Positions 39,939-57,085 of a stretch of DNA of 64,000 nt are shown piece after piece (position 1 is the first letter of the stretch; each line of letters opens with the position of its first letter). The notes beneath the pieces were generated by a model. The model did no database searches, was not told the origin of the DNA, and saw nothing but the letters and a program-made list of their open reading frames with translations. The position numbers were made by a program, and so were the translations under genes. The stretch lies in contig CBDAOQ010000003.1 of the NCBI GenBank assembly GCA_965198125.1, positions 4,554,541 through 4,618,540 on the forward strand. Direction: 5' to 3'. This stretch comes from Candidatus Versatilivorator sp. Its GTDB lineage: Bacteria; Acidobacteriota; Terriglobia; Versatilivoradales; Versatilivoraceae.

Positions 39939-40907
39939 CTATTCCTTCTCAACCAGGATCTGAGCCAACAGCTCGGGATCTACGTTCCCGCCACTGATCA
40001 CGGTGACGCTCTGCCTGGCGGGCGGCAGCTCGTGTTGATGATAGAGAAAGGCGGCAAAGGGCACCGCGCCGCTGGGCTCCACGACCAGCCGGACATCCAG
40101 AACCAGCCTGCGCAAGGCCTTGCGAATCTCCTCCTCGCTGACGGTGATGATATCGTCCACGAAGGTCTGAATATGTTCGAAGGTAATGTCGCCGATCCGG
40201 GTGGCTCTCATGCCGTCGGCAATCGTTCTGCGGGTCTGCTCAATGGGAAGTTCCACAATCCTGCCGCTTCGCAAGCTGGCTTGTGCGTCGTTGGCCCACT
40301 CCGGCTCCACACCCACCACGTGAATGCCGGGGCGGCTAAGCTTCAAGGCCGCCGCCACTCCACTGATGAGGCCCCCGCCCCCTATGGGAACCAGGACCAG
40401 TTCCACATCGGGGAGATCCTGGAGGATCTCGAGACCCACCGTGGCCTGGCCGGCGATGATGGTCTCATCGTCAAAGGGCGGCACCATGGCCAGACCCCGC
40501 TCGGCCGCCAGAGTTTCGGCCGCCATCCGCCATTCCTCTTCCCCGCCCTCCTCCACGGTGACGATCTCGGCGCCCAGGTCCAGGGTCTTGGCGCGTTTAA
40601 TGGCGGGCGCCCGGGCCGGCATGACGATGACCGCCCGAATACCCATGGCCCGGGCGGCGTAGGCCACTCCCTGGGCATGGTTGCCGCTGGAGAAGGCGAT
40701 CACACCCTGCCGCCGCTGGTCCGGAGAGAGCGAGGCGATCTTGTTGTAGGCGCCACGAAGCTTGAAGGCTCCCACGGGTTGAAAGCTCTCCGGTTTTGGA
40801 AACGTCTGCCGGTCGCTGGAGAAGTCGGTAAAGTGCACCAGAGGCGTGCTGACCGCTACTCCCGCAATCCTGGCTTGGGCTGACTTGATGTCTTCCAGGG
40901 TGATCAT
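39939..40907 (-). CDS. Threonine/serine dehydratase-family PLP enzyme (no ACT domain)
   Basis: GAFKLRGA, SSGNHAQG, GQATVGLE, PIGGGGL, ISGGNVD. Confidence 0.9.
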   Translation of the reverse strand: MITLEDIKSAQARIAGVAVSTPLVHFTDFSSDRQTFPKPESFQPVGAFKLRGAYNKIASLSPDQRRQGVIAFSSGNHAQGVAYAARAMGIRAVIVMPARAPAIKRAKTLDLGAEIVTVEEGGEEEWRMAAETLAAERGLAMVPPFDDETIIAGQATVGLEILQDLPDVELVLVPIGGGGLISGVAAALKLSRPGIHVVGVEPEWANDAQASLRSGRIVELPIEQTRRTIADGMRATRIGDITFEHIQTFVDDIITVSEEEIRKALRRLVLDVRLVVEPSGAVPFAAFLYHQHELPPARQSVTVISGGNVDPELLAQILVEKE

Positions 40908-41021
40908 GGAGCCGCTTTCTCTTCCGTGCGCCCACTTGCGGCTGTTCGGCTGGACGCATGAAGCCGTTACCGGGTTCGCTCCATCCCGGACTTGGGAATC
41001 ACCAGTGGCGCACCAGAGCTG

Positions 41022-41696
41022 TCAATCGGCTGCAAAGCAATAGAAGTAGCCGTTGCCTCCGGTACCCTGCAGATTGGCTTGACTGCAACCCCGAGAACCG
41101 TGGGAGGAGTTCCAGGAGGTCGGCTTGGCGCCGCCGCCAATCCGGTCATGGTGGCCCACCTGGGCGCTACCCTCGCCGTTTCCGGTCCAGTTCTGGCAGG
41201 TGTGGTCTTCGCCGTCAGTAAAGGCAGTGCCGTCCTCCTGGGTGCCGGTCAGGATGTCATGCTGGTTGGGAGTGTCCCCACGGCCGTTGACCGCCTCGCC
41301 CTTCTCGCTAAGTGAATTCTCCTTGCTCAGCTTGTTGTTCTCCGAGTGCAAATCGGCAACGTTCCCGGCAACCTGGACACCCTTGGCGTTGTACCAGGGA
41401 CCGGAGCCGATTCGGTCGCGAGCATTGATCCCAGGCTGGTCTCCGGAAGGGCTGGCGCTCAAGTAAGCCCGCCAGGTCCGGTTGCCTGCTCCCGCGGCTT
41501 CAGCCAACTCCTGACAGTGGGCATCGGCGCCGGCCAAGCCGCCCAGGTTGGCCCCGTCACCAGGACCGCTGCCGGTGATGAAGAAGCTCAAATCCGTTTT
41601 CTCCTCGCTTGCCGGCTCTGTTGCCTTGGGCGGTTCCGGAGGGGAGGCACAGCCCCCTGACATCACCAACGCTACAACCAGCACCGTTTTCTTCAT
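41022..41696 (-). CDS. Lipoprotein with lectin/endostatin-like domain
   Basis: Lipobox SGG-C, GGLAGADAHCQ, WRAYLS, NARDRIG.GPW, C.NW, YCFA. Confidence 0.75.
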   Translation of the reverse strand: MKKTVLVVALVMSGGCASPPEPPKATEPASEEKTDLSFFITGSGPGDGANLGGLAGADAHCQELAEAAGAGNRTWRAYLSASPSGDQPGINARDRIGSGPWYNAKGVQVAGNVADLHSENNKLSKENSLSEKGEAVNGRGDTPNQHDILTGTQEDGTAFTDGEDHTCQNWTGNGEGSAQVGHHDRIGGGAKPTSWNSSHGSRGCSQANLQGTGGNGYFYCFAAD

Positions 41697-42258
41697 GGTA
41701 CTCCCCTTTCACTCGCCCTGACATGGGCGGAATCCATAGTGACTTCAGTTGCTTAACCTGGGTGCATTCTATATGACCTGCCTGTCGCGGGGAAACCTTG
41801 CGGCGTGAAAAAGAAGGACCTCCAAGTCTATTTTATGGGAGCATCCCGGATATCATTATCGTATAATCTTGTCCGTCTTTTATACCGAATTCATAATAAA
41901 TGGATTTGAGTGGCTTTGCCCGTGAGCAAGCGGGCAGGCTCTTGCATTCTTAATTAAAGGTTCATGCGGGCTTCCTCCTTGAACAGATTGGGTTCGCTCC
42001 TATCCGTTTCTCGGATTTAGCCCATGTGAATAATCTTCACAGAATTCACAGTTAGTTAACTTCTTACAACGGGATAGCGTTTCAATGAGGAAATCTCTTG
42101 TAAAGAGGTAAGATAACCGTATATTAAGGCAAAAAATTTAGTTATAAATCTAAGACGTATGGCAGGAGAGAACCGGACAGGCAGGTTGCAGATAGAGTGA
42201 ATCCGTTTCGTGTCCATTCGACTTTATTTCAAAAGAGTCATCCCAGCAGGAGGAATCC

Positions 42259-45174
42259 ATGCTCCATAGACTTGGTGTCCTGACCGTTGTGCTGCTCCTG
42301 GTTGGGGTTTCCGGCGTTGCCTACGCTCAGGGAACCGCTACCTTGAAAGGCGAGGTGAGCGACAACTACGGCTCGGTCATCCCGGCCGCGGAAGTAATTG
42401 TGACCAACAATGCCACTGGAGTCGAGGTAATCGCCTCGACGGATGCCGTCGGCAGCTACGAATTGACCCTGGAGCCCGGGACCTACACGGTAACGGTGGA
42501 GGCTTCCGGCTTCGAGACGGCCAGCGCCAGCGACGTCGAACTGATGGCAGGCCAATCGGTCCTGCGCAACTTCTCGCTGGAATTGGGAGCCGTCACCACC
42601 TCGATCGTGGTGGTTGGGAGCCGGGCCGAGCCAAGGTCGGCGACCGAGTCCACCGTGCCGGTGGACGTCATCCGCCCCGAGGACTTTTCCAACCAGGGAA
42701 GCAGGGACCTGGCAGCCCAGTTGCGGACGGTGATTCCCTCCTTCAACATCAACACCCAGCCGATCAGCGATGCGGCCACCGTCGTCCGGCCGGCCAACTT
42801 GCGCAACCTGGCCCCCGACCACACCCTGATCCTGGTCAACGGAAAGCGCCGCCACCGCTCGGCCGTCATCACCTGGCTGGGGAACGGGATCGCCGATGGC
42901 TCGCAGGGGCCCGACATCTCGACTATTCCATCCATTGCCATTCGGCAGGCCGAGGTTCTCCGTGACGGTGCAGCCGCGCAATACGGCTCGGACGCCATTG
43001 CCGGAGTCATCAACTTCCAACTGAAGAACGCTCCCTCGGGAGGCAGCCTGGAAGTCCAGACCGGGGGGTACCTCAATTCAAATCCGGGGGACCCGGCGAC
43101 CTGCGGGTCGGGGATCATCGGCGACATCAAGCACTCCTGCAACGGGATCGGCGGACATGGCCAGAACTTGTCGGTCGCCGGAAACATCGGGATGCCGCTT
43201 GGATCGAACGGTTTTGTCAACCTCAGTATGGAGTACGGCAACGCCAACCCCACCAACCGCGCCATCCAGCGCGATGACGCCCAAGGCATTATCGACGCGG
43301 GTAACACCAATTTGCGCAACACGGCCCAGGTCTGGGGGGCCCCAAGGATCAACCACGACGTCAAGCTGTTCGGCAACTTCGGCCACATGTTCGAGAACAA
43401 TTGGCAATTCTACGGTCACGCCAACTACGTTACCCGCAAGGTGACCGGTGGCTTTTACTTCCGGAATCCACACACCCGCGGCGGGGTTTTCCGCGGTCCC
43501 AAGGTGAATGGCCTCTCCACGCTGCTCGTCGGCGACCGGGTCTGGGCCGAGACCGCTCCCGAAGGCCGCGAGCCTCCTCCCGGACGCGAGCCAGGCTCCG
43601 GCGGCTGCCCCATCGTCCCGATTATCGACAACGTGCCCGATCGCGATGCACTCGCGGCCGTCGAGGCCGACCCGAACTGCTTCACCCTCCACAGCCGCTT
43701 TCCCGGAGGGTTCACCCCGCAATTCGGCGGTGACCTGATCGACTACTCGCTGGTCACCGGCCTGCGCGGCTTCGCCAGCAACGGTTTCACCTGGGACGCC
43801 AGCGCCAGCATCGGCACCAGCGAGATCGATCAGTTCATTTTCGATACGGTCAATGCGTCCCTCGGCTACGACACCCCGACATCCTTCAGGCCAGGCATCT
43901 ACCGGCAGGACGAAGTCAATTTCAACTTCGACGTTTCCTACCCCCTCCACCAATACGTGCACACGGCCGCCGGCACGGAGTGGCGGCAGGAGAAGTTCAC
44001 CATTGGCGCCGGCGATCAGTCGTCGTGGGAAATCGGTCCCTATGCCGTGCAGGGGTTCAGTTCCGGTTCGAACGGCTTCAACGGCTATCGGGCCGACACC
44101 ACGGCGGGAGAGTGGAGCCGCAGCAATGTCGCCGTCTACGGCGACGTCGAGTTTGGCGACCCCGGCAAAAAGTGGACGGTCGGTACGGCCGTCCGGTTTG
44201 AGGACTTCGAGGACTTCGGCACCACCATCAACGGCAAGATCTCGGGGCGCTTCGAGCTGAGCGATCGCGTCGCCCTGCGCAGCGCCATCAGCAGCGGGTT
44301 TCGGGCGCCGACACCGGGGCAACAGCATGCATTCAACGTGACCACGGCCTTTATCGGCGGGCAGTTGACCAACAACGGCGTGGTCCCCTCCACCTCGGCG
44401 GTGGCTGTTACGCGCGGCGGCGGTCAGCTCCAACCGGAGAAATCACGCAACTACAGCGCGGGCATGGTGGTTGAGGAGGGCCCCTTCACCTTCACTGCCG
44501 ACTATTTCCGGATCGACATCGCTGACCGCGTTTCCCTGTCTCAGGAAATCAACTTGTCGGAGGGGGAGATCGAGACGCTGCTGGACGAAGGGATTCCCGA
44601 AGCACGCAATTTCCCCGTGTTCCGCTTCTTCCTGAACGACTTTTCGACCACGACCCAGGGCATCGACCTGATCTCGACGATGGTGGTCGGGAAAACGACC
44701 TTCAGTGGGGTCTTCAACTACACGGATACGACCCTCAAGGACATTGAATCGTCGGTGATCGACACTTTCCGTATCACGACGCTGGAACGGGGACTGCCCA
44801 ACACGCGCTGGAACTTCACCGTCAACCACGACGGCGGACGGTGGAACCTGATGGGCCGCTTGAACTACTTCGGTGCATTCTGGGACAGCGAGGACGGGCG
44901 CAACGCGAACGATGTGGCTCCGGATGTTGTGACAGAGTCCTGGCTCTACCCCTCCTATGCCGGCAAGGCGCTGCTGGATCTGGAGCTGGGTATCCCGTTC
45001 GGAGACAACCTCAAACTGGCCCTGGGGGGTGAAAACGTGCTGAATACCTACCCCGAAGTGAACCAGTATGGCGCCCAAACGGTGGGCAACAAGTACGGCC
45101 AGTTCTCGCCCTTCGGGTTCGGCGGCGCCTACTACTACGTGCGGCTCAGCTACAGTTGGGGTAAGCTTTTCTAG
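42259..45174 (+). CDS. TonB-dependent receptor with N-terminal carboxypeptidase-regulatory-like domain
   Basis: Signal peptide, plug motifs TLILVNGKRRH and EVLRDGAAAQYGSDAIAGVINF, SGFRAP, PEKS, terminal F; AGGAGG RBS. Confidence 0.93.
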   Translation: MLHRLGVLTVVLLLVGVSGVAYAQGTATLKGEVSDNYGSVIPAAEVIVTNNATGVEVIASTDAVGSYELTLEPGTYTVTVEASGFETASASDVELMAGQSVLRNFSLELGAVTTSIVVVGSRAEPRSATESTVPVDVIRPEDFSNQGSRDLAAQLRTVIPSFNINTQPISDAATVVRPANLRNLAPDHTLILVNGKRRHRSAVITWLGNGIADGSQGPDISTIPSIAIRQAEVLRDGAAAQYGSDAIAGVINFQLKNAPSGGSLEVQTGGYLNSNPGDPATCGSGIIGDIKHSCNGIGGHGQNLSVAGNIGMPLGSNGFVNLSMEYGNANPTNRAIQRDDAQGIIDAGNTNLRNTAQVWGAPRINHDVKLFGNFGHMFENNWQFYGHANYVTRKVTGGFYFRNPHTRGGVFRGPKVNGLSTLLVGDRVWAETAPEGREPPPGREPGSGGCPIVPIIDNVPDRDALAAVEADPNCFTLHSRFPGGFTPQFGGDLIDYSLVTGLRGFASNGFTWDASASIGTSEIDQFIFDTVNASLGYDTPTSFRPGIYRQDEVNFNFDVSYPLHQYVHTAAGTEWRQEKFTIGAGDQSSWEIGPYAVQGFSSGSNGFNGYRADTTAGEWSRSNVAVYGDVEFGDPGKKWTVGTAVRFEDFEDFGTTINGKISGRFELSDRVALRSAISSGFRAPTPGQQHAFNVTTAFIGGQLTNNGVVPSTSAVAVTRGGGQLQPEKSRNYSAGMVVEEGPFTFTADYFRIDIADRVSLSQEINLSEGEIETLLDEGIPEARNFPVFRFFLNDFSTTTQGIDLISTMVVGKTTFSGVFNYTDTTLKDIESSVIDTFRITTLERGLPNTRWNFTVNHDGGRWNLMGRLNYFGAFWDSEDGRNANDVAPDVVTESWLYPSYAGKALLDLELGIPFGDNLKLALGGENVLNTYPEVNQYGAQTVGNKYGQFSPFGFGGAYYYVRLSYSWGKLF

Positions 45175-45375
45175 CCAGCCAGACGGCCCAGCGGGGGGTC
45201 ACGAACAGCTTTTCCCTGGCCCCCCCAACCTCAACCCCGGGGCCACCGCCTGGTTGCGGACAGCCGTAGCGAGCCTGAAGGTCGCTGGAAATCGGTGTTG
45301 ACGGAACTCGCCTCCCAAAGGTCTGGACATCAGCCTGTCTGGTTTCGTCCCTTCGAGTTCAACGGCGGTTTTGGG

Positions 45376-45852
45376 CTACCCGCAACTCAACCATTGGGCC
45401 AGCGCCTTGTCCGGATTGGCCAGTTCCTCGATCGAGTCATACCAACTGGCTTCCCAGCCGCTTTCCGGAAGGCCGGTGAACACCATCAGGTTGAGAGGGT
45501 AGCCTTCGCTGTCGGTGCAACGCCGGAAATCGTCCCGGAACAGGAATACCGGCTTCCCCCAGGCAATCGCCATCCCCAGCTCCACCATCACTCCCTCGTC
45601 CGGGGGACAGCCGTTGACTACTGCAAACAGTCCATCCGCCTCCCGCACGTCGCGAAGGTCAGCCTGACCGATCCGATAGGCCCAATGCGGGCTGCTCCGG
45701 TCGATCTGGTTGTTGCGGGCAAACGGCTCCCACACCTGGGCGCCCATCGATTCCAGGGCCGCCACCAGATCCTGCAACGGTCCCGCGCGCTGCTGCGCCG
45801 AGAATCCGTACGGATTGGCCAGATAAAGGGTCTTTTTCGTCAGCATGTTCAT
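45376..45852 (-). CDS. Nucleoside 2-deoxyribosyltransferase-family protein
   Basis: LYLANPYGF, DLRDVREAD, PDEGVMVELGMA, NLM. Confidence 0.85.
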   Translation of the reverse strand: MNMLTKKTLYLANPYGFSAQQRAGPLQDLVAALESMGAQVWEPFARNNQIDRSSPHWAYRIGQADLRDVREADGLFAVVNGCPPDEGVMVELGMAIAWGKPVFLFRDDFRRCTDSEGYPLNLMVFTGLPESGWEASWYDSIEELANPDKALAQWLSCG

Positions 45853-45957
45853 CTCAGCAAACCTCTCGACCCGAGGGGCAACAAAGGCCCCTAACCACGC
45901 CGCCGCCAAGGCGGGGCGGCCGCTGCCGCTGATATTGACTCACGGGGGGCGGTGTTT

Positions 45958-46060
45958 GCCCCCCACCGGCTCGACTGCGGGCTCCGGGCAATCACTCCCC
46001 CCTCGAGGGGGAGTCTCAGAAGCCGAGCCGCCAGGCGAAGGCCGATGCGGTGGGGGGTGG
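45958..46060. repeat. REP-like composite palindrome
   Basis: CCCCCCACCGGCTCGACTGCGGGCTCC..ATCACTCCCCCTCGAGGGGGAGTC..GAGCCGCCAGGCGAAGGCCGATGCGG; matches 31185-31255 and 31421-31492. Confidence 0.75.
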
Positions 46061-46103
46061 AAGCCGGGCCGCACCTTAGTATACATTTCTGCTCCATCGC
46101 TGC

Positions 46104-47009
46104 TCAGATCCCAACACTTGGAGCATTGCCGAGTGGTGCGCGTCCCAGCGCTAACAACTGGCGCACAAGTTGCCGACCTTCTTGAGTTATTCCTGGGGAA
46201 GCGAGCAGGGGTTGGGCTCTCGCGACTTCGTCGCGGACGGCACGCACGCGCTCCTCGGCGAATCTCCGGTCCAGTCCGGGTGGCGGCCTCTGCGCCGCAA
46301 GCTGCCACAGTCTCTGCACAATCACGAACACATACAAAGCGTGGAGCACGCCCTGCACGTTCCGTTCGCAGTTCCGCCACGGTGAGAAGGTGACCGTTTC
46401 CGGGCGGTTCGACTCGACGAACGGAATCCGGCGTTCGAGCAAGGACAGTTGCAGGTGCATCGTTTCGTGGACCAGAGCTTCCGCCACCCGCTCGGTTCTC
46501 GCGTGAGTCCCGTGGTCTGGTACGGAGAGGAACACGGAAAAAGGCAGGTCAGGCCTGCTGAAGCTACAATCTACCTCGGGAGACGACGCCTTGAGCAGGT
46601 GGACGCAGCGCACTAGGTGTTCGATGGAGGAGGACAGCTCCGGCCAGACAGCATGCGTAAGATGCCAAGCCTGTCTCAGGATGCCAACATCATCCGCCGG
46701 AACCGTAGACTCATCGACTCTGTGCAGCGAAAGACCCACAGCGTCAAGCTCGGCGACAGCTCGATAGGGGAGACACTCAAGTAGAACGAGGCATCCCTTC
46801 ACTCCAGCTGGCGGATCGACCTTGCCAATGATCCGCCTTGCCTCGTTGGCGTTTCGCGCCATCATGCGCGCCGTGCCGTAGGACTCGAAGTCGAGACCAA
46901 GCGGACTCAGGAGGTCGGCAACACCAATCTGTTGCAGTGCCGCAGGCAGTGCCGAAGTCCAGTGAGCGGGGCGCAGGAGGACGTCTTCCACAGATTGAAC
47001 AGTGTCCAT
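46104..47009 (-). CDS. HExxH-motif RiPP tailoring protein (aKG-HExxH-like)
   Basis: SFSRPDLPFSVF, EALVHETMHLQL, SPWR...R...GVLHALYVF; last gene of the RiPP operon. Confidence 0.8.
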   Translation of the reverse strand: MDTVQSVEDVLLRPAHWTSALPAALQQIGVADLLSPLGLDFESYGTARMMARNANEARRIIGKVDPPAGVKGCLVLLECLPYRAVAELDAVGLSLHRVDESTVPADDVGILRQAWHLTHAVWPELSSSIEHLVRCVHLLKASSPEVDCSFSRPDLPFSVFLSVPDHGTHARTERVAEALVHETMHLQLSLLERRIPFVESNRPETVTFSPWRNCERNVQGVLHALYVFVIVQRLWQLAAQRPPPGLDRRFAEERVRAVRDEVARAQPLLASPGITQEGRQLVRQLLALGRAPLGNAPSVGI

Positions 47010-47018
47010 AGCAAGCTT

Positions 47019-47606
47019 CTATCTGACGACCGCATGAAACGAATACACGATGGAATACCGCTCGCCACGGACGACTTCGCTGACTGCATGATGCGAGCGG
47101 CGGGATATCTCAAAGATCAAGGCCTGTCTCGACACAGGCGCGAGGACCACCCGCACGTCTTCAGGTTCGCCACCACCAAAGAGCAGCAAGTACCCACCGT
47201 CGCCAGCACTCCAGCCGCGATTCAGCTGCACGATCAGTCGATGGGTCTCGCCACCCTCAAGGTAGTCGTCGTGGATCCGAATGCGCTGCCCTTTCGTAAG
47301 TCGATGAGCTGTCATGTCGACGGTCGCTTGGAGTCGCCTGTTGAAAAGTGCCGAAATCTGATCACGCATCTCTGCAATGGTCGTATCGGCAGCCAACTGC
47401 GCGACGTCAGAGGGCAACTCGACATCGCGCATGTCGAATTCGTGCTGACAATAGAACGATTCCTCCGTGAGATTCCACGGAGCTGCACGTTCGAACCATG
47501 ACAAGGTCGACCGCTCGACTTCGGTGCACAAGGCTTCCGGCAAAACAGAAAACGGAAAAGGGTCTATCTCGAGGCAGGCAGTTGACAAGTCGACAACGGG
47601 TCGCAT
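47019..47606 (-). CDS. yhhC: 2OG-Fe(II) oxygenase (YhhC-like)
   Basis: FYCQHEF, IRIHDD (HxD), THRLIVQLNRGW..GG, SHHAVSEV..GERYS. Confidence 0.78.
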   Translation of the reverse strand: MRPVVDLSTACLEIDPFPFSVLPEALCTEVERSTLSWFERAAPWNLTEESFYCQHEFDMRDVELPSDVAQLAADTTIAEMRDQISALFNRRLQATVDMTAHRLTKGQRIRIHDDYLEGGETHRLIVQLNRGWSAGDGGYLLLFGGGEPEDVRVVLAPVSRQALIFEISRRSHHAVSEVVRGERYSIVYSFHAVVR

Positions 47607-48757
47607 CAGGCTGGGAGGTGGGCGTTTAGGTATCGTCGAACGTGTGAAATCAGAAAAAGGTGATCGGTACAGTAGACCGAAGGGTTATCGAAGCCCCGCT
47701 CGTCGCTCCAACGGTAGAGCGGCATCCCGCCGCCACAAACCGAGAGTTCGGGGCAACGCAGGCATTGGTTGTTGGCAGGATGCTGCATCTCGACATGCTC
47801 TCGAAAGGCGGCTGTCCGCACGATATCCTGCAAAGAATGAGAATGGATTGACCACAGCTCGTTGAACCGATCTCCGCCGTCGAATGTACTCTTGAGCGTG
47901 TCGTTCTTCGTGACAGTCCCATCGGTATCGATGATGAGGATCGCGTTTTGGTCTCGCCCCATTCCCTCCTTCGTAGCTGACCCTCCAAGCACCAGCTTCA
48001 CCAAGTCATCCAGCACGCGGACCGGAACGGGATCGGGATCACTCATGTAGACATCGAAGAGGCCTGCCAGCCATTCTCCCGCTTCGTGCGTATCGAATCC
48101 GGCCTTGCCTGGCGGCAAACGCGAGTGGTTTCCGTCGGGCAGAAGAAAACTCATCCCAGGTACACCGAGCCCTCGCAGGAACCAGTAGACATCGCTGGGA
48201 TTCGTGGACGGTTCGACAACGCTGAGTGTGCCTGAGAACAGTCGTTCCGTTGCAGGGTGGCGTTGCAGGCAATGGATACCGCTGAGTGTGGCCCCGAAGG
48301 TCCCACCTTGATCGAACCGCACGCGGCGGGAATCATTGATCTTCTTCGGTCCGTCGAGACTCACTGAGACCGTGGCCCCGGCGTCCACAAAAAGGTCGAG
48401 CAGCGGATCAGTGAGGAGCGTCCCGTTCGTCTGCACCGACAGAGTGCATCCCACGGGGAGGCGGGAGCGGAGACCAGTCAGTAACCGCGCTAGTAGTGCT
48501 TCTCCAAGCAGCAGTGGCTCCCCACCGTGGAGCACGACGGCGAAGTCCTGATCTTGAGCCTGCCGCAGTTCATTGAGACGACTGACTATAGCGTCGATCG
48601 TTGCCTGCGACATGGCAGGAGGCTGACGTTGCCACCCCTGGTCACCGAGCTGGTAGACGTAACAATAGCTGCACGCGATGTTGCAACGGCTGGCGACCTT
48701 CAGCAGGACAGTATCGATAGGGACCGGCACGTCACCCCGACATGGTGGCCCGTTCAC
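47606..48757 (-). CDS. yhhB: Cyclophane-forming radical SAM/SPASM maturase (YhhB-like)
   Basis: KVASRCNIACSYCY, HGGEPLL, QTNG, SLDGP, SPASM CxxC..CGGG..NPSVYC. Confidence 0.85.
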   Translation of the reverse strand: MNGPPCRGDVPVPIDTVLLKVASRCNIACSYCYVYQLGDQGWQRQPPAMSQATIDAIVSRLNELRQAQDQDFAVVLHGGEPLLLGEALLARLLTGLRSRLPVGCTLSVQTNGTLLTDPLLDLFVDAGATVSVSLDGPKKINDSRRVRFDQGGTFGATLSGIHCLQRHPATERLFSGTLSVVEPSTNPSDVYWFLRGLGVPGMSFLLPDGNHSRLPPGKAGFDTHEAGEWLAGLFDVYMSDPDPVPVRVLDDLVKLVLGGSATKEGMGRDQNAILIIDTDGTVTKNDTLKSTFDGGDRFNELWSIHSHSLQDIVRTAAFREHVEMQHPANNQCLRCPELSVCGGGMPLYRWSDERGFDNPSVYCTDHLFLISHVRRYLNAHLPA

Positions 48758-48948
48758 CGGTTGTGCCGGTTGTGTACGCGGTCGTACCGGGTGCTGGAAG
48801 ATGATTTTGCCGTCGTCTCCATGCGTACCTCTTCTACGAGTCGACGAAGAGCCGGACTCAACTCGGTGCCCGCCGGAATATCAATGCGACTGTCAAAGAC
48901 GGCATTCTCCAAAGACCCGGAGGTGGTCAACTGTTCCTTCTTCTCCAT
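48754..48948 (-). CDS. yhhA: Triceptide RiPP precursor (YhhA-like), core YDRVHNRHNR
   Basis: Leader SPALRRLVEEVR, C-terminal Y-D-R, H-N-R, H-N-R motifs; stop overlaps the rSAM start. GGAG RBS before MEKK (alternative start 48993). Confidence 0.85.
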   Translation of the reverse strand: MEKKEQLTTSGSLENAVFDSRIDIPAGTELSPALRRLVEEVRMETTAKSSSSTRYDRVHNRHNR

Positions 48949-49100
48949 GGCTTCGCTCCATGCTTCTGGTGTCATGTGTGCACTAGCTTCCATTCTACCA
49001 CCGAATCGGTCGATGATCTATCATCATTGTCTGTAAATCACTTAAAACAAACGATGATCATCTCGTTGTTTTCAATTAACCTATTTAGAATCATTGATTT

Positions 49101-49874
49101 CTAGGTTATATTATCCGTTTCTTCGCCGACGGTAGTCAGATAGTCGCGAGCCATAGCGCTGTGAGGGGCGTCGGGTCGTGCGAACGAGTCTACTTTGAGC
49201 CTCGCTTTGCGACGTAGGGCCTCACTTGTGCCTGGGTCGCGTACGACCTCATACAGAATCTCCAACTGGTTGAGTACGCACTGCCTATCCTCCTGCAATC
49301 CTGGCCGATTCAACCCAAGCACGGTGACCGTCACTCGCCCGCGTTCCGTGCCCGGCTCACAAGCAGATCCATTGAAAGTAAGGTGCTCGCTCAACTCTGT
49401 CTCGCCGTAGGGATTCAGGAGCAACAGAGACTCCCTGTCGAGGGGGTCGAGGTGATTCCGAGTTCGCTGTCCGGGCTCTTCAAGCGGGAAGTAATCAGAT
49501 TTCTTAAGGTTGCACGTTTCGCAGGCAAGCACGAGATTGTCCCACCGGTATGCCAGCCAATAGTAGCCAGGATATAGCTTATTGCTCATCTTGTCCTGAC
49601 GAACAGCACCCTTCGGGCGGAAGTGGTCGATCCGACCTGCAGAGGTGGGGGAAGGCTTCGACTCACAATAGCAGCACTTATCGTGCTGGAGCGTGCTGAG
49701 AGCATTCCTGACTTGTGGGGATCCATAGATGTTCTTCTTGATTTTGAACTTCAGTTTGCCGGAATCATACGCAGCCCGACTACCAATGTAAGCGTCGCAG
49801 TCTTGTCGAGTCGCGCTGTTTCCGTGACTCAAAAGCAACGGAGGAATACGATCCGGCCTGTTCAGGTTAATCAC
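49101..49874 (-). CDS. HNH endonuclease, PtuB/retron-effector-like
   Basis: QHDKCCYCES, IDHFRPK, YYWLAYRWDNLVLACETCNLKK, LLLNP, LGLNR; GTGA overlap with the ATPase stop. Confidence 0.85.
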   Translation of the reverse strand: MINLNRPDRIPPLLLSHGNSATRQDCDAYIGSRAAYDSGKLKFKIKKNIYGSPQVRNALSTLQHDKCCYCESKPSPTSAGRIDHFRPKGAVRQDKMSNKLYPGYYWLAYRWDNLVLACETCNLKKSDYFPLEEPGQRTRNHLDPLDRESLLLLNPYGETELSEHLTFNGSACEPGTERGRVTVTVLGLNRPGLQEDRQCVLNQLEILYEVVRDPGTSEALRRKARLKVDSFARPDAPHSAMARDYLTTVGEETDNIT

Positions 49875-51220
49875 CTCTTCTCTTCCCGCCGTGCCTGAAG
49901 ATCTGCCGCCGCCTGCCGAATGATCCGCATTGCTTCCTGGTCCTCGAGCTGCTCCGCGGTAGGCAATGAGGCCAGTTCGTCGGCAATTTGCTGGAGCCGT
50001 ACGCTGGCTTTCGGGGTAACCGGATGCTTCTCGAACAGCTTCTCCCGCTCTTTCATGAGAGCTTCGACACGTAGCGATCTCGCGGTCTCTAGTTCGAAGA
50101 GATTGACCAGAATCTGGTCGAAGCGCCACCCCTCGACGACGTCTGGTTCGTTCTCAATGGCTACTTGATCGCCTGCCTCAGTCTGTTTCAGCACGGCTAC
50201 GTTGACATCGATCATGGAGGTGATCATCAGCGGACTGTGAGTAGTCGCGACGAACTGAACGTTTCTAAAGTGATCGGAGAACTGTTTCATGATCATGCGC
50301 TGCCAGCGAGGATGAAGGTGCAGGTCGATCTCGTCGATCAACACCACAGCCGGCTCCGCAAGCGGCTTCGTGCTCTCTGGGTAGTGCTTGACAAGCCTCC
50401 ACGCCAGGTCAACGATCCACGCGGTGACGGTTCGGTGGCCAAGACTCAGGTCATTCAGCGGGACATCCCCGAACTGGGTCTGAAATCTGAGCCTGCCGCT
50501 AAGTTCTTCCGGGTCTGCGATATCGATGTCGCTGGCCGCATTGATGAAAGGGAGGATATCGGCCAAGGCATGTTTCATACTATCCAGACGGGCCTTCGAC
50601 TTCGCGTTGCCTTTAAGGGCCGAGTAGTCGAGCTGTGACAACACATCGGCGGCATCGATAAGCTCTGTGCTGTCTTCATGAAGCAGGTCACCCGGTTCAG
50701 ACTCAGACAACTTTTCGGCATTCTGATTTCCCATATACCGATTTGCCGCATAAGGAATGATGAACGGTTCTACCGTCGTGTCGGGCTCGTTTACAGTTCG
50801 CCGCACATTCTCGAGCGTGTTGTCGCGGGCCGATAGGGCCATTCCGGTTCTTACGCGCGCCGTTGACGGGATGCCTGACGCTAGAGTAGGAATCTCGACC
50901 ATCTCCGCCTGCAGGGTCGTGCTGCGGGCACCGTCACGTAACAGCTTGGCCATGTCAGGAGGATCTTGATCGTGCAGCCATGGTTGGATACCTGCTTGCG
51001 TATCCTTACCAGGCGGGTAGTACGGTGTCGGGCGCATCCATGCCAGACACTGCAGGAGGGTCGTTTTGCCAACTCCGTTGTCCCCCACGAGCAAGGTCCA
51101 ACGGGCTGGGCGGCCGTTTGAGTCTACAAGGTGCAGTACCTGCTTTTCCGCAAAGCAACGCGCGTTCTCAATCTCAAGACTGAGGAAGTAGATCGCTCTC
51201 TGGCGGCGTTTGGCTGGCAT
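49871..51220 (-). CDS. ABC/AAA_21-type ATPase, PtuA-like
   Basis: Walker A GDNGVGKT, signature LSLG, Walker B/D-loop VLIDEIDLHLHPRWQ, H-loop TTHSP. Confidence 0.88.
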   Translation of the reverse strand: MPAKRRQRAIYFLSLEIENARCFAEKQVLHLVDSNGRPARWTLLVGDNGVGKTTLLQCLAWMRPTPYYPPGKDTQAGIQPWLHDQDPPDMAKLLRDGARSTTLQAEMVEIPTLASGIPSTARVRTGMALSARDNTLENVRRTVNEPDTTVEPFIIPYAANRYMGNQNAEKLSESEPGDLLHEDSTELIDAADVLSQLDYSALKGNAKSKARLDSMKHALADILPFINAASDIDIADPEELSGRLRFQTQFGDVPLNDLSLGHRTVTAWIVDLAWRLVKHYPESTKPLAEPAVVLIDEIDLHLHPRWQRMIMKQFSDHFRNVQFVATTHSPLMITSMIDVNVAVLKQTEAGDQVAIENEPDVVEGWRFDQILVNLFELETARSLRVEALMKEREKLFEKHPVTPKASVRLQQIADELASLPTAEQLEDQEAMRIIRQAAADLQARREEKR

Positions 51221-51579
51221 TCGAATCTCTCGATGGTCGGTGAACTATACGCCGAGGACGATCCACGCCACCGCGCACACCGCACTCTACTGCAGATTAA
51301 CACCCTGCATGGCACATTCCGCTCGGAGAGTGATCGCTGTCATCCGATACTGACCCGCCCCCGCGATTTTACCACTTTCTAAGTTAGAAGTTCGCGTCCA
51401 CTTCTCCTCACGTGGCCGTTTGTTTCAGGCCAACATCTGAGCTCAGGATACAGAAAACCAGAAAAACTGAGGGAGTTATAGGAGTGTCAACGACGAAACA
51501 GGTGGGGGACTTATTGGGGGATCATTGCAAGTTGAATCAAATATAACCTATTGATATAAAAATATTTATATATAATATC

Positions 51580-51669
51580 TGGCGGAGAGAGCGGGATTCG
51601 AACCCGCGTTAGAGTTTCCCCTAAACACGCTTTCCAAGCGTGCGCCTTCAGCCACTCGGCCACCTCTCC
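51580..51669 (-). tRNA. tRNA-Ser(GGA)
   Basis: GGAGAGGTGGCCGAGTGG..CACGC-TTGGAAA-GCGTG, long variable arm, GGTTCGAATCC, CCA end. Confidence 0.97.
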
Positions 51670-51825
51670 CCATTCAATTACCGCCCGATTGTAGTGAAAA
51701 CCCGGGGCGGCGTCCAGAGGGCTTCGGATTCAGGCCCGGCGGCGCCGCCGCGTGGCCCGGTGGCGTGGGACTGCCCCAATCCGCGGGCTGATGCCCACGG
51801 CCGGTCCGCAGCGGCCTTGCCTCCC

Positions 51826-52257
51826 TCACAGAATCCGGACCCGGTCGCCCACGGAGATGGCACCTCCCGACTCGACGCTTGCGAGCATTCCCCTGCGTCC
51901 ATGCAACTCCCGCTGCAGGCCGGCCCGGATTTCATCCATGCGGCTGCAAGGCCGGCAGGGCGTGGTGATTCGCAGCCGCACCTCCGATCCGATCTGCAGG
52001 ATGCGGCCTTGATCGAGGCCATTCAAGGCGATGCCGCGAATGGTCAGGTTTTCCTTGACCTCGCCGATACGCAGGTTCATGGCTTGCAGCGTTTCTTCCT
52101 CGATGAGGAGAACCTGGCGCTCACTCCCTGCCCGAGCGTGGTGATCCATCTCCAGACCCAAATCCTGAATGAGCCTGGCCGGATTGACCGGTTGCATGGG
52201 CCGGCGGGACCCGGGACACCGCTGGATGCTGACAAGGACTCCTTTGTGGGAACTCAT
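51826..52257 (-). CDS. MOSC domain protein
   Basis: GLEMDHHA, RQVLL, ENLT, PCRPC, RRGM...GGAISVGD. Confidence 0.85.
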   Translation of the reverse strand: MSSHKGVLVSIQRCPGSRRPMQPVNPARLIQDLGLEMDHHARAGSERQVLLIEEETLQAMNLRIGEVKENLTIRGIALNGLDQGRILQIGSEVRLRITTPCRPCSRMDEIRAGLQRELHGRRGMLASVESGGAISVGDRVRIL

Positions 52258-52491
52258 GGAACCTTCCTGGACATTTCCAATGCTCACCACCTGGCGGACC
52301 CAAGTCTTCGCCCCATTCCAGGCCCGATCCCTAGCCGGAATCCCCGAAGCCGGCCAGATTCCCGCCGCAGCCCTGGCGTTGCCCACCTTCCGGCTCCGCG
52401 GGCATCCTCAATTTGACCGGCCCGCGGCCATTCATTAAGATGGGCACCCCGGTCAGCTTCCGTGTTCTCCTCGGCGATGCCTCTCGGATCA

Positions 52492-53070
52492 ATGGGACAA
52501 TCGGCTTCTCAAATTGCCTCTGAACTGGCTTCTCGGGCCCCACACAGACTCGAGGGCCGACATTCGGGGCGAGCGGCCGTTCTGATGCCGATCTGGGAAC
52601 GAAGGGAAGCCCTGTATTTCCTGCTTACCCGGCGTACCGAAACGGTGGAAACCCACAAGGGACAGATTTCCTTTCCCGGAGGCATGCGAGACTCGGAGCA
52701 GGAGCCCCTGGTTCGGACCGCGCTGAGAGAAACGCAAGAGGAGATCGGGCTGCCGGAATCGCAGATACGAATCCTGGGGCAGTTCGACGACTACCTGTCC
52801 TCCACCGACCTGATTGTCACGCCATTTGTCGGCTGGGTCTCCCCCCCACTGGAGCTGAGTCCCAACCCTGAAGAAGTCGAAGAGATTTTGGAGGTCCCCT
52901 GGAGCCTCTTCCGAGATCCCGGTTTATCCAGGACCGAAACCCTCCACCGACTGGGCCGGGACATTCTGGTCTACCACTACGATTTTCGAGGCCGAGACGT
53001 CTGGGGGCTGACGGCCCGGATCATCCGGGATTTCCTGCACCTTATGGATGCCTTGCCTCCCGAAAGTTGA
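52492..53070 (+). CDS. CoA pyrophosphatase (NudL-like Nudix)
   Basis: AAVL, LTRR..HKGQISFPGG, TALRETQEEIG, VWGLTA. Confidence 0.9.
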   Translation: MGQSASQIASELASRAPHRLEGRHSGRAAVLMPIWERREALYFLLTRRTETVETHKGQISFPGGMRDSEQEPLVRTALRETQEEIGLPESQIRILGQFDDYLSSTDLIVTPFVGWVSPPLELSPNPEEVEEILEVPWSLFRDPGLSRTETLHRLGRDILVYHYDFRGRDVWGLTARIIRDFLHLMDALPPES

Positions 53071-53075
53071 CGTTG

Positions 53076-53337
53076 AAGCCGCATTTCTCACCAGGGGGTT
53101 GCACTCTTCTCAAGAGTGCAACTTGGCGCAGGATTTTCCGCTTCAGCGCGTGCTCGTGACCGAAGGGCGTAGCCGGAACACCATTCAAGGGAGCATGTGC
53201 GCGCTGAAGGGGAAAAGACAAGCCAGGGCGCGCCCAGCACCGTCTGTCCCCTGCAGACTCCAAACAAAGCGCCGCAAGATGTTAAAGACAAGCACTTTTC
53301 TACCTTAGGCTCAGCGTCCTGGTGAGAAATGCGGGTT
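53076..53337. mobile_element. ~260-bp MITE (copy 1)
   Basis: TIR A(G/C)CCGCATTTCTCACC / GGTGAGAAATGCGGGT; first ~165 bp nearly identical to 56825-56990. Confidence 0.85.
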
Positions 53338-53367
53338 AAAGCCGCGGCTGCCCGATTTTAGCTCCCC

Positions 53368-54366
53368 TCACTCCTCTTTCAGACGCCTTTTCATCAAGTC
53401 TCTCACGGCCTCTCGCGGTTCCTTGCGGTGGTGGAGCAGCAGATTCATCTGCTCCGCGATGGGCATTTCCACTCCATAGCGTTCAGCCAGCTTCAAGGTG
53501 GCCCCGGTGGCGGGAATTCCTTCCGCCACCGTGCGCATTCCCTCCGTGATATCCGCCAACCCGCACCCCTTTCCCAACTGGAAGCCAACCCGGCGATTGC
53601 GACTGAGTTCGCCGTGGCAGGTCAGTACCAGATCCCCCACGCCGGCCAGACCGGCCATGGTTTCCGTCCGGCCACCGCAGGCCACAACCAGGCGTGTCAT
53701 TTCCGCCAGACCGCGCGTCACCACCGCCGCGACGGAATTGCAACCCAAACCCATTCCGGCACACACTCCGGCGGCGATGGCGATCACGTTCTTGACCGCG
53801 CCGCCCAGTTCCACGCCGATGATGTCGGTATTGGTGTAGAGACGAAGCGAGGGGCCGGAGAACTCGGTTTGCACCACCCGGTTGACGGTTGGGTCGGGTC
53901 CGGCCACGACAATGGCCGTCGGATCGCCCCGAGCGACCTCCCTGGCAAAGGAGGGACCGGAGATCGCGGCGATTCGAGGCCGAAAAGAGGATGAAATCAC
54001 GGCTTCCATCACCTGGGACATACGCTGCAGGCTGGTGCTTTCGATCCCTTTGGTGGCGCTCACCAGAACAGACTCGGGACGCAGGTAGGGCAGCATCTCC
54101 CGGTAGAGCCGGCGGCAACAATTGGCCGGGACGGCCGTCAAGACGATTTCGGCCCCTTCCAGACCAAATGCCAACGAATCTGTGGCGACGACTGAATCCG
54201 GGATCGAAAAATCACTGAGGTAAAGAGGGTTGCTCCGCCCCGCATTGATGGCGGGGACCAGCTCCGGCTCATAGACCCAGAGTCGAATCCGGTGTCCCAT
54301 TCTCGCCAGTGCAATGGATAGGGCTGTACCCCAACCGCCCCCGCCAATGATCGCCACCCGCTTCAT
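53368..54366 (-). CDS. gpsA: NAD(P)H-dependent glycerol-3-phosphate dehydrogenase
   Basis: IGGGGWGTAL, SATKG, SGPSFA, GAVKNVIAIAAG, GDLVLTC, SRN. Confidence 0.95.
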   Translation of the reverse strand: MKRVAIIGGGGWGTALSIALARMGHRIRLWVYEPELVPAINAGRSNPLYLSDFSIPDSVVATDSLAFGLEGAEIVLTAVPANCCRRLYREMLPYLRPESVLVSATKGIESTSLQRMSQVMEAVISSSFRPRIAAISGPSFAREVARGDPTAIVVAGPDPTVNRVVQTEFSGPSLRLYTNTDIIGVELGGAVKNVIAIAAGVCAGMGLGCNSVAAVVTRGLAEMTRLVVACGGRTETMAGLAGVGDLVLTCHGELSRNRRVGFQLGKGCGLADITEGMRTVAEGIPATGATLKLAERYGVEMPIAEQMNLLLHHRKEPREAVRDLMKRRLKEE

Positions 54367-54459
54367 GGTCCTCGCCCCGTCGGGCCGTGCTGCGCTCCAG
54401 CCCACCCTCCTGCAGAACTTCCTGTTTGTGGTTTGACAGCGACCCGGTGAGCACTCCGG

Positions 54460-55695
54460 TTAGAGCAACCTGCGCCGCACCATGTCCAAGGCCGTTTGGG
54501 TGGCCCAAAAACGGATCTTCTCCCGATCGCCGCTGAATCGACACTCCCGATGCTCGACCTGGTTTTCCATGGCGAGGGCCAGATGCACCAGCCCCACTGG
54601 CTTTTCCGGGCTGCCGCCGGATGGCCCTGCCACGCCCGTCACTCCAATGCCGATGCTGGCTCCGGTCCGATCACGAATTCCTTCCGCCAAGGCCTTGGCC
54701 ACCTCCGCACTGACGGCGCCGCCCATTTCCAAAAGCAGAGGCGGCATCCCGGTAAATTCCACTTTGGACCGGTTGCTGTAGCAGATGACACCGCCGAGAA
54801 AATACCTGGAGCTGCCGGAAACCCTGGTGATTCGTTCGGCAATCAGACCTCCGGTACAGCTTTCAGCCACGGCCAGAGTCTTTTTTTTTCGGAGAAGGCA
54901 TTCCCCGACGACCTGTTCCAGGCTCTCGTCACCGGTGGAGAAAATGTAATCCCCCAGTTCGATCCGGATCCGATCGGCCACCTTCTGAACCAACGCCATG
55001 GCTTCCTGCCGGGATGTGGCCTTGCCGGTCAGGTGAACCTGAATCTCTCCCTTGCCGGCCAAAATAGTGGTCACGGGGTTCTTGTACCGAGTATAGATCG
55101 GAGCAATCTGCTCGTCGAGCTGAGATTCCGCCATCCCGGTAGCCCTCAGGACACGGGTAAACAGATGAAAACCCTTCGAACGACGGCTGAGCAACGACAG
55201 GCAGGATTCCTCAAAAATCGTCTTCATTTCCGAAGGCACTCCGGGGAGCAGAATAATGACCGCGTCGCCTTCTTCCAGCCAAAGCCCCGGAGCGGTCCCC
55301 AGCCTGTTCTCGAGAACTCGCGCTCCCACGGGAACCAGGGCCTGGCGGGCATTGTTGGCGGGCATCTCCAGTCCCCGGCTCCGAAAGCGAGTCCGGATGC
55401 CCTGGAGAATGTCATCCTGCAGCACCATCTGCCTTTGGAACACGCGCGCAAATACTTTCCTGGTAATGTCGTCTTCGGTCGGTCCCAGACCTCCGGTGGC
55501 GATCACCAGCGGGGACCGCTCCACCGCCGACCTCACCACCTGCTCCAGCCGGGATTCGTGGTCCCCGGCAACCACCTTGAGATCGACTTCAATGCCGATG
55601 GAGTTGAGTTGCCTGGTCAGATAGAGGGAGTTGGAATCCACCCGGTGAGGAGTCAGCAACTCCGACCCAATGGCGATAATCTCTGCGGTTTCCAT
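54460..55695 (-). CDS. cinA: CinA competence/damage-inducible protein (NMN deamidase)
   Basis: IGSELL, GGLGPTEDD, GTAPG, LPGVP, AESCTGG, GSS.YF, GVAGP.GG. Confidence 0.93.
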   Translation of the reverse strand: METAEIIAIGSELLTPHRVDSNSLYLTRQLNSIGIEVDLKVVAGDHESRLEQVVRSAVERSPLVIATGGLGPTEDDITRKVFARVFQRQMVLQDDILQGIRTRFRSRGLEMPANNARQALVPVGARVLENRLGTAPGLWLEEGDAVIILLPGVPSEMKTIFEESCLSLLSRRSKGFHLFTRVLRATGMAESQLDEQIAPIYTRYKNPVTTILAGKGEIQVHLTGKATSRQEAMALVQKVADRIRIELGDYIFSTGDESLEQVVGECLLRKKKTLAVAESCTGGLIAERITRVSGSSRYFLGGVICYSNRSKVEFTGMPPLLLEMGGAVSAEVAKALAEGIRDRTGASIGIGVTGVAGPSGGSPEKPVGLVHLALAMENQVEHRECRFSGDREKIRFWATQTALDMVRRRLL

Positions 55696-55770
55696 AGGAT
55701 GGGGGAGGGACCTGGCCGGCTAGCTGGAGGGGAGCAATGGGCTGTCGAATCTTCCCAGGCCTTGCCTGCG

Positions 55771-56778: not shown

Positions 56779-56825
56779 GGGTCAGATCGATGGGATGGAT
56801 GGTGTCTGCAAGCTCCGCGGGATTA

Positions 56826-57085
56826 ACCCGCATTTCTCACCGGGGGGTAGCACTCTTCTCAAGAGTGCAACTTGGCGCAGGATTTTCCGCTTCAGCGCGT
56901 GCTCGTGACCGAAGGGCGTAGCCGGTACACCATTCGAGGGAGCATGTGCGCGCTGAAGGGGAAAAGACAAGCCAGGGCGCGCCCAGCACGGTGTGTACCC
57001 GGAAGCCTTTAAAATAGGAGCCATAAGCTGCTGAAGATAAACTATCTTTCATGAGGTGCCCTGCGACCCGGTGAGAAATGCGGGT
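56826..57085. mobile_element. ~260-bp MITE (copy 2) with TA duplication, inserted at the pgpA stop codon
   Basis: TA-ACCCGCATTTCTCACCGG...CCGGTGAGAAATGCGGGT-TA. Confidence 0.88.

Follow-up and report, generated by a model that had tools for sequence, protein, structure and literature searches.

A Yhh-type triceptide operon with a standalone aKG-HExxH oxygenase forms one half of a conserved six-gene cassette with the Septu pair PtuA/PtuB

The chemistry of triceptides is known, whereas to our knowledge they have not been given a biological role. The way in which the Septu system senses infection is still debated. Type I-A and I-B retrons combine a reverse transcriptase and its multicopy single-stranded DNA (msDNA) with either a PtuAB-like pair or an ATPase-Toprim protein. 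The locus described here lies in a 64,000-nucleotide (nt) stretch of the genome of Candidatus Versatilivorator sp., phylum Acidobacteriota (contig CBDAOQ010000003.1, positions 4,554,541 to 4,618,540), and this whole stretch is referred to as the window. Profile matches identify four minus-strand genes, yhhA, yhhB, yhhC, and the gene for a standalone aKG-HExxH protein, as the operon of a Yhh-type triceptide, a peptide that is synthesized ribosomally and then modified posttranslationally (RiPP), and as a member of the characterized YhhABC family. Neighborhood comparison shows that this operon and the genes for PtuA and PtuB are the two halves of a conserved six-gene cassette that moves horizontally (Table 1). 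The operon thus described belongs to a known RiPP family; the new part is the Septu cassette, a variant that can be assigned to Septu and to the Yhh system alike.

The primary paper on YhhABC is said to be that of Sugiyama et al. (JACS 2022). The window locus has the same C-terminal Y-x-R/H-x-R/H-x-R core, the same A-B-C gene order with overlapping stops and starts, and YhhB and YhhC proteins above the equivalog cut-offs. It differs from that system by the fourth gene, by its tight link to Septu, and by a longer leader, precursors of this type having 62 to 66 amino acids (aa) versus 47 to 58 aa in loci lacking HExxH. ChlB, a fused radical S-adenosylmethionine (SAM)/aKG-HExxH enzyme (structure 8s5f) reportedly described by Morishita et al. 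(Nat Chem 2024), has the same HExxH iron site, the same fold as judged by sequence and model, and a cyclophane synthase as partner; here the HExxH protein has its own gene, is ~20% identical over the fold, and stands beside a second, classical 2-oxoglutarate (2OG) oxygenase. PtuA and PtuB resemble Septu type I in matching the PADLOC models over their full length, in having intact Walker A and HNH/Cys residues, and in being translationally coupled, but this PtuA clade has a four-gene peptide-maturation operon as a constant neighbor and its sister clade does not. The two alternative effector modules that adjoin an accessory module in type I-A and I-B retrons do so here as well, whereas the accessory module consists of a modified peptide and three enzymes, with no reverse transcriptase or noncoding RNA (ncRNA). 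A search of the available literature returned no paper in which Septu occurs together with radical SAM and PtuA, or with a cyclophane; among the matches listed for Septu and RiPPs, the titles and opening lines of the abstracts describe genome surveys only.

A YhhB scan with one genome per species gave 45 loci, and 25 of these encode YhhB at 47% identity or more. PtuA and PtuB are adjacent in 13 of the 25, nine of them close acidobacterial loci and four distant ones at 35 to 42% identity (Pseudomonadales, two Gammaproteobacteria, and Terriglobia). All of the adjacent PtuA match PDLC00304 (390–489 bits), and all of the adjacent PtuB match PDLC00339 (239–289 bits). Four proteobacterial loci with yhh genes and HExxH (L016, L018, L019, and L020) have a single AAA_21/AAA_15 ATPase of 512 to 582 aa in the place of PtuAB, at ~3.7–5.6 kb in each locus; this replacement matches PADLOC HEC-04 (~126 bits) and ATPase-Toprim_I-B. 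Neither PtuAB nor the ATPase is found in eight loci, one of which is a 2.6-kb contig and one of which is disrupted by an insertion sequence (IS). Two HExxH-bearing loci have neither module: one carries the IS between yhhA and yhhB and the other is flanked by integrase genes. The six loci lacking HExxH comprise one Sphaerotilus record and five gammaproteobacterial loci (including the 2.6-kb contig, which is not judgeable), and PtuAB is adjacent in none of the six. Among 401 Acidobacteriota genomes YhhB exceeds its cut-off in five, drawn from four families including that of the window, and all five encode a PtuA homolog within ~4 kb; two other genomes of the set have this type of PtuA and no YhhB. 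All-against-all clustering of the neighbors in the window and 28 loci yielded YhhB, YhhC, HExxH, PtuA, PtuB, and one further HEC-04-like ATPase as the families present in at least four of the 29 neighborhoods. The other items shared at that level are only short open reading frames (ORFs) lying over the precursor or antisense to cluster genes, and the comparison found no protease, exporter, regulator, or receptor shared across the 29 neighborhoods.

The linkage also holds when it is counted from PtuA. A search with eight aligned PtuA sequences brought in 80 metagenome contigs, and yhh genes are present on 30 of them. When PtuA is at least 35% identical and at least 3 kb are available on both sides, 14 contigs encode yhhB, yhhC, and HExxH and seven do not; one of the seven, L056, corresponds to the L057 element interrupted by an IS21 in ptuB. 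HExxH accompanies yhhC on 22 of the 24 contigs with a yhhC match, and the other two contigs end 0 and 421 nt past yhhC. The genes are convergent on 21 metagenome contigs, divergent on six, and co-directional on three. Adjacency of yhh and PtuAB is kept through at least five gene orders, PtuAB being placed between yhhC and HExxH in L023 and L032, and the seven PtuAB loci without yhh have no other conserved neighbor in common.

A PtuA tree of 63 rows was calculated with a quick IQ-TREE run and rooted on four PtuA that are 26 to 28% identical. All 35 linked rows fall into one clade of 49 with a Shimodaira-Hasegawa-like approximate likelihood ratio (SH-aLRT) support of 97. The other 14 rows of this clade are on contigs too short to be scored. 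None of the five informative unlinked rows belongs to it: four are in its sister clade of 10 (SH-aLRT 95), which includes no linked row, and one is in the outgroup. A single change of state suffices to explain yhh linkage. In a YhhB tree of 55 rows, each of the three major subclades includes rows linked to PtuAB; nested among these are the unlinked and the HEC-04 rows, and the HEC-04 loci are sisters of PtuAB-linked loci. This pattern fits an ancestral link followed by several losses and one effector swap. The PtuA and YhhB trees disagree in some clades.

The limits of the cassette were determined by blastn of window positions 40000–57000 against nine close loci. Each locus gave one homologous stretch, from 46113–46215 to 51100–51351 at 70 to 84% identity, interrupted only by the ptuB deletion in L006 and L007 and by a gap in L014. 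Nothing outside the six genes is common to the nine loci, the flanking genes differ, and no flanking direct repeats or att sites were found around the block. The sequence-only reading of this region had extended from 46104, the final base of the HExxH stop codon, to the yhhA ATG at 48948; the four genes it delimited are real, but it missed the next two genes of the same conserved cassette, those encoding PtuA and PtuB.

A functional tie to phage defense is proposed because the yhh operon stays adjacent to the Septu pair. The reading to which we give a probability of roughly 0.7 is that a Yhh triceptide operon, with three cyclophanes, a β-hydroxy-Asp, and a hydroxylation by the HExxH protein, is part of a Septu cassette and that its peptide acts with the ATPase-nuclease in defense. 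The modified peptide would work together with the PtuA/PtuB module against phage, as the conserved adjacency implies. A peptide-maturation operon that has stayed next to a single Septu clade in several bacterial phyla would offer a handle on both the role of triceptides and the sensing of infection by Septu.

A somewhat unlikely but live alternative is that the operon is an ordinary RiPP cluster and that the Septu pair hitch-hikes with it, the two having come together a single time on a small mobile block and been inherited jointly since, with no functional interplay. The single linkage origin required by the PtuA tree, the transfer of the whole block into unrelated surroundings, the occurrence of both halves alone elsewhere, and the promoter-like region of the yhh operon itself all agree with such a history. 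It sits less easily with an adjacency that outlasts divergence to ~35% PtuA and 47% YhhB identity and the several rearrangements of gene order, with the lack of any other conserved neighbor, and with the different ATPase-nuclease-like gene that replaces PtuAB in four loci.

Several observations count against a joint function of peptide and nuclease. Each half persists alone, which argues against a strict toxin-antitoxin dependence and keeps the hitch-hiking explanation alive. Six to seven yhhABC loci have neither HExxH nor PtuAB (Colwellia, Marinomonas, Marinospirillum, Aliidiomarina, Pseudomonas, and one Sphaerotilus), and a truncated PtuB lies beside an intact yhh operon in L006 and L007. 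Thirteen of the 35 linked rows in the PtuA tree were fetched via YhhB and the rows are interrelated, so the counts overstate independence; the unbiased count in the linked clade is therefore 22 linked and 0 unlinked. Five short PtuAB rows (L050, L052, L054, L055, and L060) form one subclade inside the linked clade, and in the three examined the gene after ptuB encodes a KAP NTPase (L050 and L054) or a methyltransferase (L055) rather than HExxH, probably as the result of secondary loss. The yhh operon appears, from its upstream sequence, to have its own promoter, and no core residue was found to covary with the presence of HExxH across the YhhB-fetched and PtuA-fetched loci taken together.

The two genes immediately upstream of yhhA on the same strand are, by their profile matches and active-site residues, a Septu pair for which phage protection is predicted. 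PtuA has the Walker A motif GDNGVGKT at residue 46 and matches Pfam AAA_21/AAA_15. The PDLC00339 alignment begins at residue 87 of the long ptuB ORF, the protein matches Pfam HNH, and the Cys cluster together with H84, N113, and N122 is invariant in the PtuB alignment. The GTG start of ptuB at 49874 overlaps the TGA of ptuA. Both proteins also match the PADLOC models ATPase_I-A and HNH_I-A, and they miss the retron-type equivalogs, PtuA scoring 139.9 versus a cut-off of 500 for NF041760 and PtuB 38.9 versus 150 for NF041761. No reverse-transcriptase match was found among the six genes of the 5.15-kb block, and an Rfam scan of 45300–51800 returned a tRNA only. A type I-A (Ec78-like) retron identity was rejected on these grounds: the block has no reverse transcriptase or ncRNA, and PtuA and PtuB are below the NCBIfam equivalog cut-offs.

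Because PtuA and PtuB match ATPase_I-A and HNH_I-A and the replacement ATPase matches ATPase-Toprim_I-B, the comparison suggests that the Yhh module may take the place of the retron sensor and regulator; we take these three PADLOC models to represent the effectors that type I-A and I-B retrons use. An extension of this idea, which we consider quite unlikely, is that the hydroxylated tricyclophane is not secreted and acts within the cell as a ligand controlling the state of the Septu ATPase-nuclease complex, as msDNA does for PtuAB in type I-A retrons, with the same role toward the ATPase-Toprim protein in four lineages. Peptide synthesis would need SAM, iron, oxygen, and 2-oxoglutarate, and the nuclease could be set free if the peptide were lost when a phage takes over. 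No leader protease or exporter is conserved in the 29 neighborhoods and action inside the cell is therefore possible, a weak pointer given that housekeeping proteases and transporters can serve RiPPs. A complex prediction for PtuA, PtuB, and unmodified YhhA gave a score of 0.00 ("no answer") and carries no weight either way. If the ligand proposal were true, it would be the first biological role for triceptides and the first RiPP-controlled immune effector.

The match of YhhA to NCBIfam NF041705 reaches 53 bits (cut-off 36, E = 2.8e-14) and is therefore not due to chance. The three aromatic-x-Arg motifs noted at the extreme C terminus in the sequence-only reading, YDR, HNR, and HNR, are borne out: they make up the last 10 residues, the core YDRVHNRHNR, of an ORF that ends in STRYDRVHNRHNR, and the core stops at the last Arg with no C-terminal extension. 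A conserved SPALRRLVEEVR is found in the leader. Translation probably starts at the ATG at 48948, the codon for Met16 in the longest ORF, because a Shine-Dalgarno-type GGAG sits 7 nt upstream and this Met aligns with the start Met of 10 homologs, each of 62 to 66 aa. The alternative ATG at 48993 falls inside the conserved –10-like element TGGTAGAAT. The TGA of yhhA overlaps the GTG start of yhhB, which it directly precedes.

The core is near-invariant over the 25 genome loci, YDR-x-H-[NH]-RHNR with or without a terminal G, GR, or GQ, and with the metagenome loci included the consensus becomes Y-[DNS]-R-x-[HYF]-[NH]-R-H-N-R. A core constrained to this degree probably recognizes a conserved target. 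The variant YNRTYHRHNR occurs in L065, L077, and L122, with Tyr for His in ring 2 and His for Asn in the ring middle; L077 has two precursor genes, and L065 and L122 have the precursor placed between yhhB and yhhC.

YhhB scores 468.9 bits against NF041707 (cut-off 445) and 56.7 bits against Pfam Radical_SAM. Its CxxxCxxC motif corresponds to C25, C29, and C32, and the C-terminal Cys residues are at positions 332, 335, 341, and 363. YhhC, whose gene overlaps the yhhB stop by 1 nt, scores 225.1 bits against NF041706 (cut-off 150), matches Pfam 2OG-FeII_Oxy_3/4, and retains the iron-site residues H112-x-D114 and His172/173. In the accessible portions of the published work, the YhhB type of enzyme bonds Tyr-C3 and His-C2 to Arg-Cβ, giving the HNR cyclophane (PMC11002830, PMC11499958), and YhhC yields L-erythro-β-hydroxy-Asp on YhhB-modified YhhA (PMC12186529). 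By analogy, YhhB would bind the leader of the 64-aa YhhA and close three three-residue cyclophanes in YDRVHNRHNR, joining Tyr1-C3 to Arg3-Cβ, His5-C2 to Arg7-Cβ, and His8-C2 to Arg10-Cβ, and YhhC would β-hydroxylate Asp2 of the core. This tricyclophane and β-hydroxy-Asp chemistry, assigned by homology, is already known and is not new here.

The first reading of the locus had proposed a Tyr/His/His-to-Arg tricyclophane with up to two kinds of hydroxylation and a search of the four proteins against the YhhA/B/C and aKG-HExxH models. All four proteins score above the curated cut-offs, and the tricyclophane agrees, by homology, with the YhhB chemistry in the excerpts of PMC11002830 and PMC11499958. 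The Asp part of the proposed hydroxylation accords, again by homology, with the L-erythro-β-hydroxy-Asp given for YhhC in the consulted part of PMC12186529. The two oxygenases it distinguished are distinct by profile, YhhC matching NF041706 and the fourth protein matching TIGR04267, the aKG-HExxH peptide β-hydroxylase model, with 115.7 bits versus a cut-off of 40.

The HExxH protein has no Pfam match. Its HETMH motif (residues 181–185) is kept in all 47 aligned sequences, in which H181, E182, H185, and 21 other residues are invariant. By sequence, residues 112–288 match the HExxH domain of ChlB (8s5f, E = 6.9e-16), and no other solved relative is significant. An AlphaFold2 model built on the 47 sequences has a mean predicted local distance difference test score of 92, and a Foldseek search with this model returned 8s5f (E = 2.4e-12, template modeling (TM) score 0.59) and 22ob (E = 3.4e-8), with 4l7a as the top peptidase (E = 0.017, TM score 0.24). 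Judged by sequence and model, the protein is of the ChlB-type aKG-dependent oxygenase fold and not a zincin protease, in keeping with the earlier view that it is a hydroxylase-type enzyme. As an Fe(II)/2-oxoglutarate oxygenase it would be expected, from family and fold, to add at least one further hydroxyl. The β-carbon of a ring residue, His or Asn, is the most likely target on the same grounds, with the reaction following ring formation. Family members β-hydroxylate His, Asp, Phe, Gln, and Pro in the part of PMC13060819 that was available, and a cyclophane-linked family enzyme needs a preformed ring according to the excerpt of PMC12636437.

Thr at core position 4 was considered as a substitute for HExxH; it fit the YhhB-fetched loci, where Thr4 occurs exactly where HExxH is absent, and was refuted by PtuA-fetched loci with HExxH that also have Thr4 (L065, L077, and L122) or S, F, L, or Q. 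Of the 25 loci fetched with YhhB, 19 have HExxH after yhhC or elsewhere in the cluster, which makes the four-gene form, and not the three-gene form, the common one in this sample of yhh clusters. For cluster mining, the four-gene form is the one to be expected. The combination with a standalone HExxH protein is thus the majority form; the earlier description of it as poorly characterized stands, no published assay having been found.

The HExxH protein might instead cut the backbone, oxidatively or hydrolytically, in leader removal or C-terminal trimming, a role we consider very unlikely. The family has a precedent, since the excerpt of PMC12636437 describes oxidative backbone cleavage by the aKG-HExxH enzymes PflC and PosC, and proteolysis by PflC when the leader is absent. 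The same excerpt presents the nearest solved relative, from a cyclophane system, as an Asp/His β-hydroxylase that needs a preformed ring (PMC12636437). The cassette has no conserved leader protease and in many relatives the last Arg is followed by G, GR, GQ, S, or SR, but the window core has nothing to trim past that residue, and such extensions occur both with and without HExxH. It is hardly credible that the peptide is a secreted metal chelator taken up through the TonB-dependent receptor encoded nearby. In its favor, β-hydroxy-Asp and His are common metal ligands and the core is rich in His. Against it, the receptor gene is outside the shared block and conserved beside no other yhh locus, on which ground a metallophore was rejected; no exporter or protease is conserved, and four Arg dominate the core.

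Table 1. Positions in the window of the cassette, its genes and spacer elements, and flanking features
Feature	Position	Strand	Description
Six-gene block	46113..51270	minus	ptuA-ptuB-yhhA-yhhB-yhhC-HExxH; common to relatives, flanks unrelated
ptuA	49871..51220	minus	ABC/SMC-type ATPase of Septu, 449 aa; PADLOC PDLC00304, 452.4 bits, full length
ptuB	49101..49874	minus	Septu HNH nuclease, 257 aa, with GTG 49874 as start; PADLOC PDLC00339, 238.6 bits
ptuB-yhhA spacer	48949..49100	minus	Hairpin, inverted repeat, and –10-like element; function inferred only
AT-rich hairpin	49044-49072		With T-run, in ptuB-yhhA spacer
Inverted repeat	49012-49025		GATGATAGATCATC; just upstream of extended –10-like element, ahead of yhhA
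Extended –10-like element	48992-49000		TGGTAGAAT; in front of yhhA
Longest ORF over yhhA	48754..48993	minus	C terminus ...STRYDRVHNRHNR*
yhhA	48754..48948	minus	Precursor, 64 aa; NF041705 match and start evidence
YhhA leader	within 48754..48948	minus	~54 aa, with conserved SPALRRLVEEVR
yhhB	47606..48757	minus	Radical SAM/SPASM three-residue cyclophane synthase, 383 aa; NF041707
yhhC	47019..47606	minus	2OG-Fe(II) oxygenase, 195 aa, Asp β-hydroxylase by homology; NF041706
HExxH gene	46104..47009	minus	Standalone aKG-HExxH oxygenase, 301 aa; TIGR04267; HETMH at residues 181–185
Palindromic element	45978-46072		GC-rich, ~90 nt
2-Deoxyribosyltransferase gene	45376..45909	minus	Nucleoside 2-deoxyribosyltransferase family; PF05014, 100.6 bits
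Receptor-like ORF	42259..45174		Outer-membrane receptor-like (TonB-dependent), 971 aa
tRNA-Ser(GGA)	51580-51669	minus	~230–300 nt past ptuA-side edge

The HExxH-side edge of the block is abutted by the palindromic element, which has 60 matches in its own genome, at least 40 of them at 84 to 96% identity, and no Rfam match. It folds as a long hairpin (–75 kcal/mol, z –2), and its summed contig depth is ~5500 and ~4280 in two metatranscriptome runs. The element is probably a repeat resembling repetitive extragenic palindromes or miniature inverted-repeat transposable elements and is possibly transcribed. A signal recognition particle-like RNA was considered for the deep RNA-library signal at 45951–46167 and rejected in favor of the multicopy repeat, there being no Rfam match. 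The 2-deoxyribosyltransferase gene just outside the block was rejected as a part of the system since it is outside the shared block and not beside other cassettes. Beyond the ptuA-side edge the tRNA-Ser gene is followed by an AT-rich stretch, and no integrase is nearby.

IS damage and decay are seen in several related loci. A DDE transposase gene lies between yhhA and yhhB at L015:4907–5950 and a transposase-like gene in the same place at L020:4514–5755, an IS21 IstB gene lies inside ptuB at L056:9124–9882, and the 5′ part of ptuB is deleted in L006 and L007. In L090 and L098, yhhA and yhhB adjoin a short N-terminal ptuA remnant with no yhhC or HExxH match, and these loci look like decayed cassettes.

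The inverted repeat GATGATAGATCATC in the ptuB-yhhA spacer occurs once in the window, and it is kept together with the –10-like TGGTAGAAT in the close acidobacterial loci L006–L012. From its position and conservation, GATGATAGATCATC is a candidate operator for a regulator of the peptide operon. Four metatranscriptome runs from two studies contain 19 to 29% of the sampled words of the cassette; two of the four are labeled "sponge metagenome" and give 0-difference contigs. In two runs of one study such contigs span 48642–48967 and 48656–48968, covering the precursor and the start of yhhB, and further 0-difference pieces lie on yhhB, ptuB, and ptuA. The contig ends at 48967 and 48968 in these two RNA libraries are only a weak hint to the start of yhhA. 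The RNA-library contigs of runs X18–X20 leave the spacer region 48989–49205 uncovered, and a gap in contig cover proves nothing. These data suggest transcription of the cassette; RNA libraries can contain DNA, so what they establish is its presence. Among runs X1–X20, the cassette DNA (46104–51220) is present almost whole, with 0.68 to 0.94 of the sampled words, in 16 runs from six studies, and in part in the four metatranscriptome runs.

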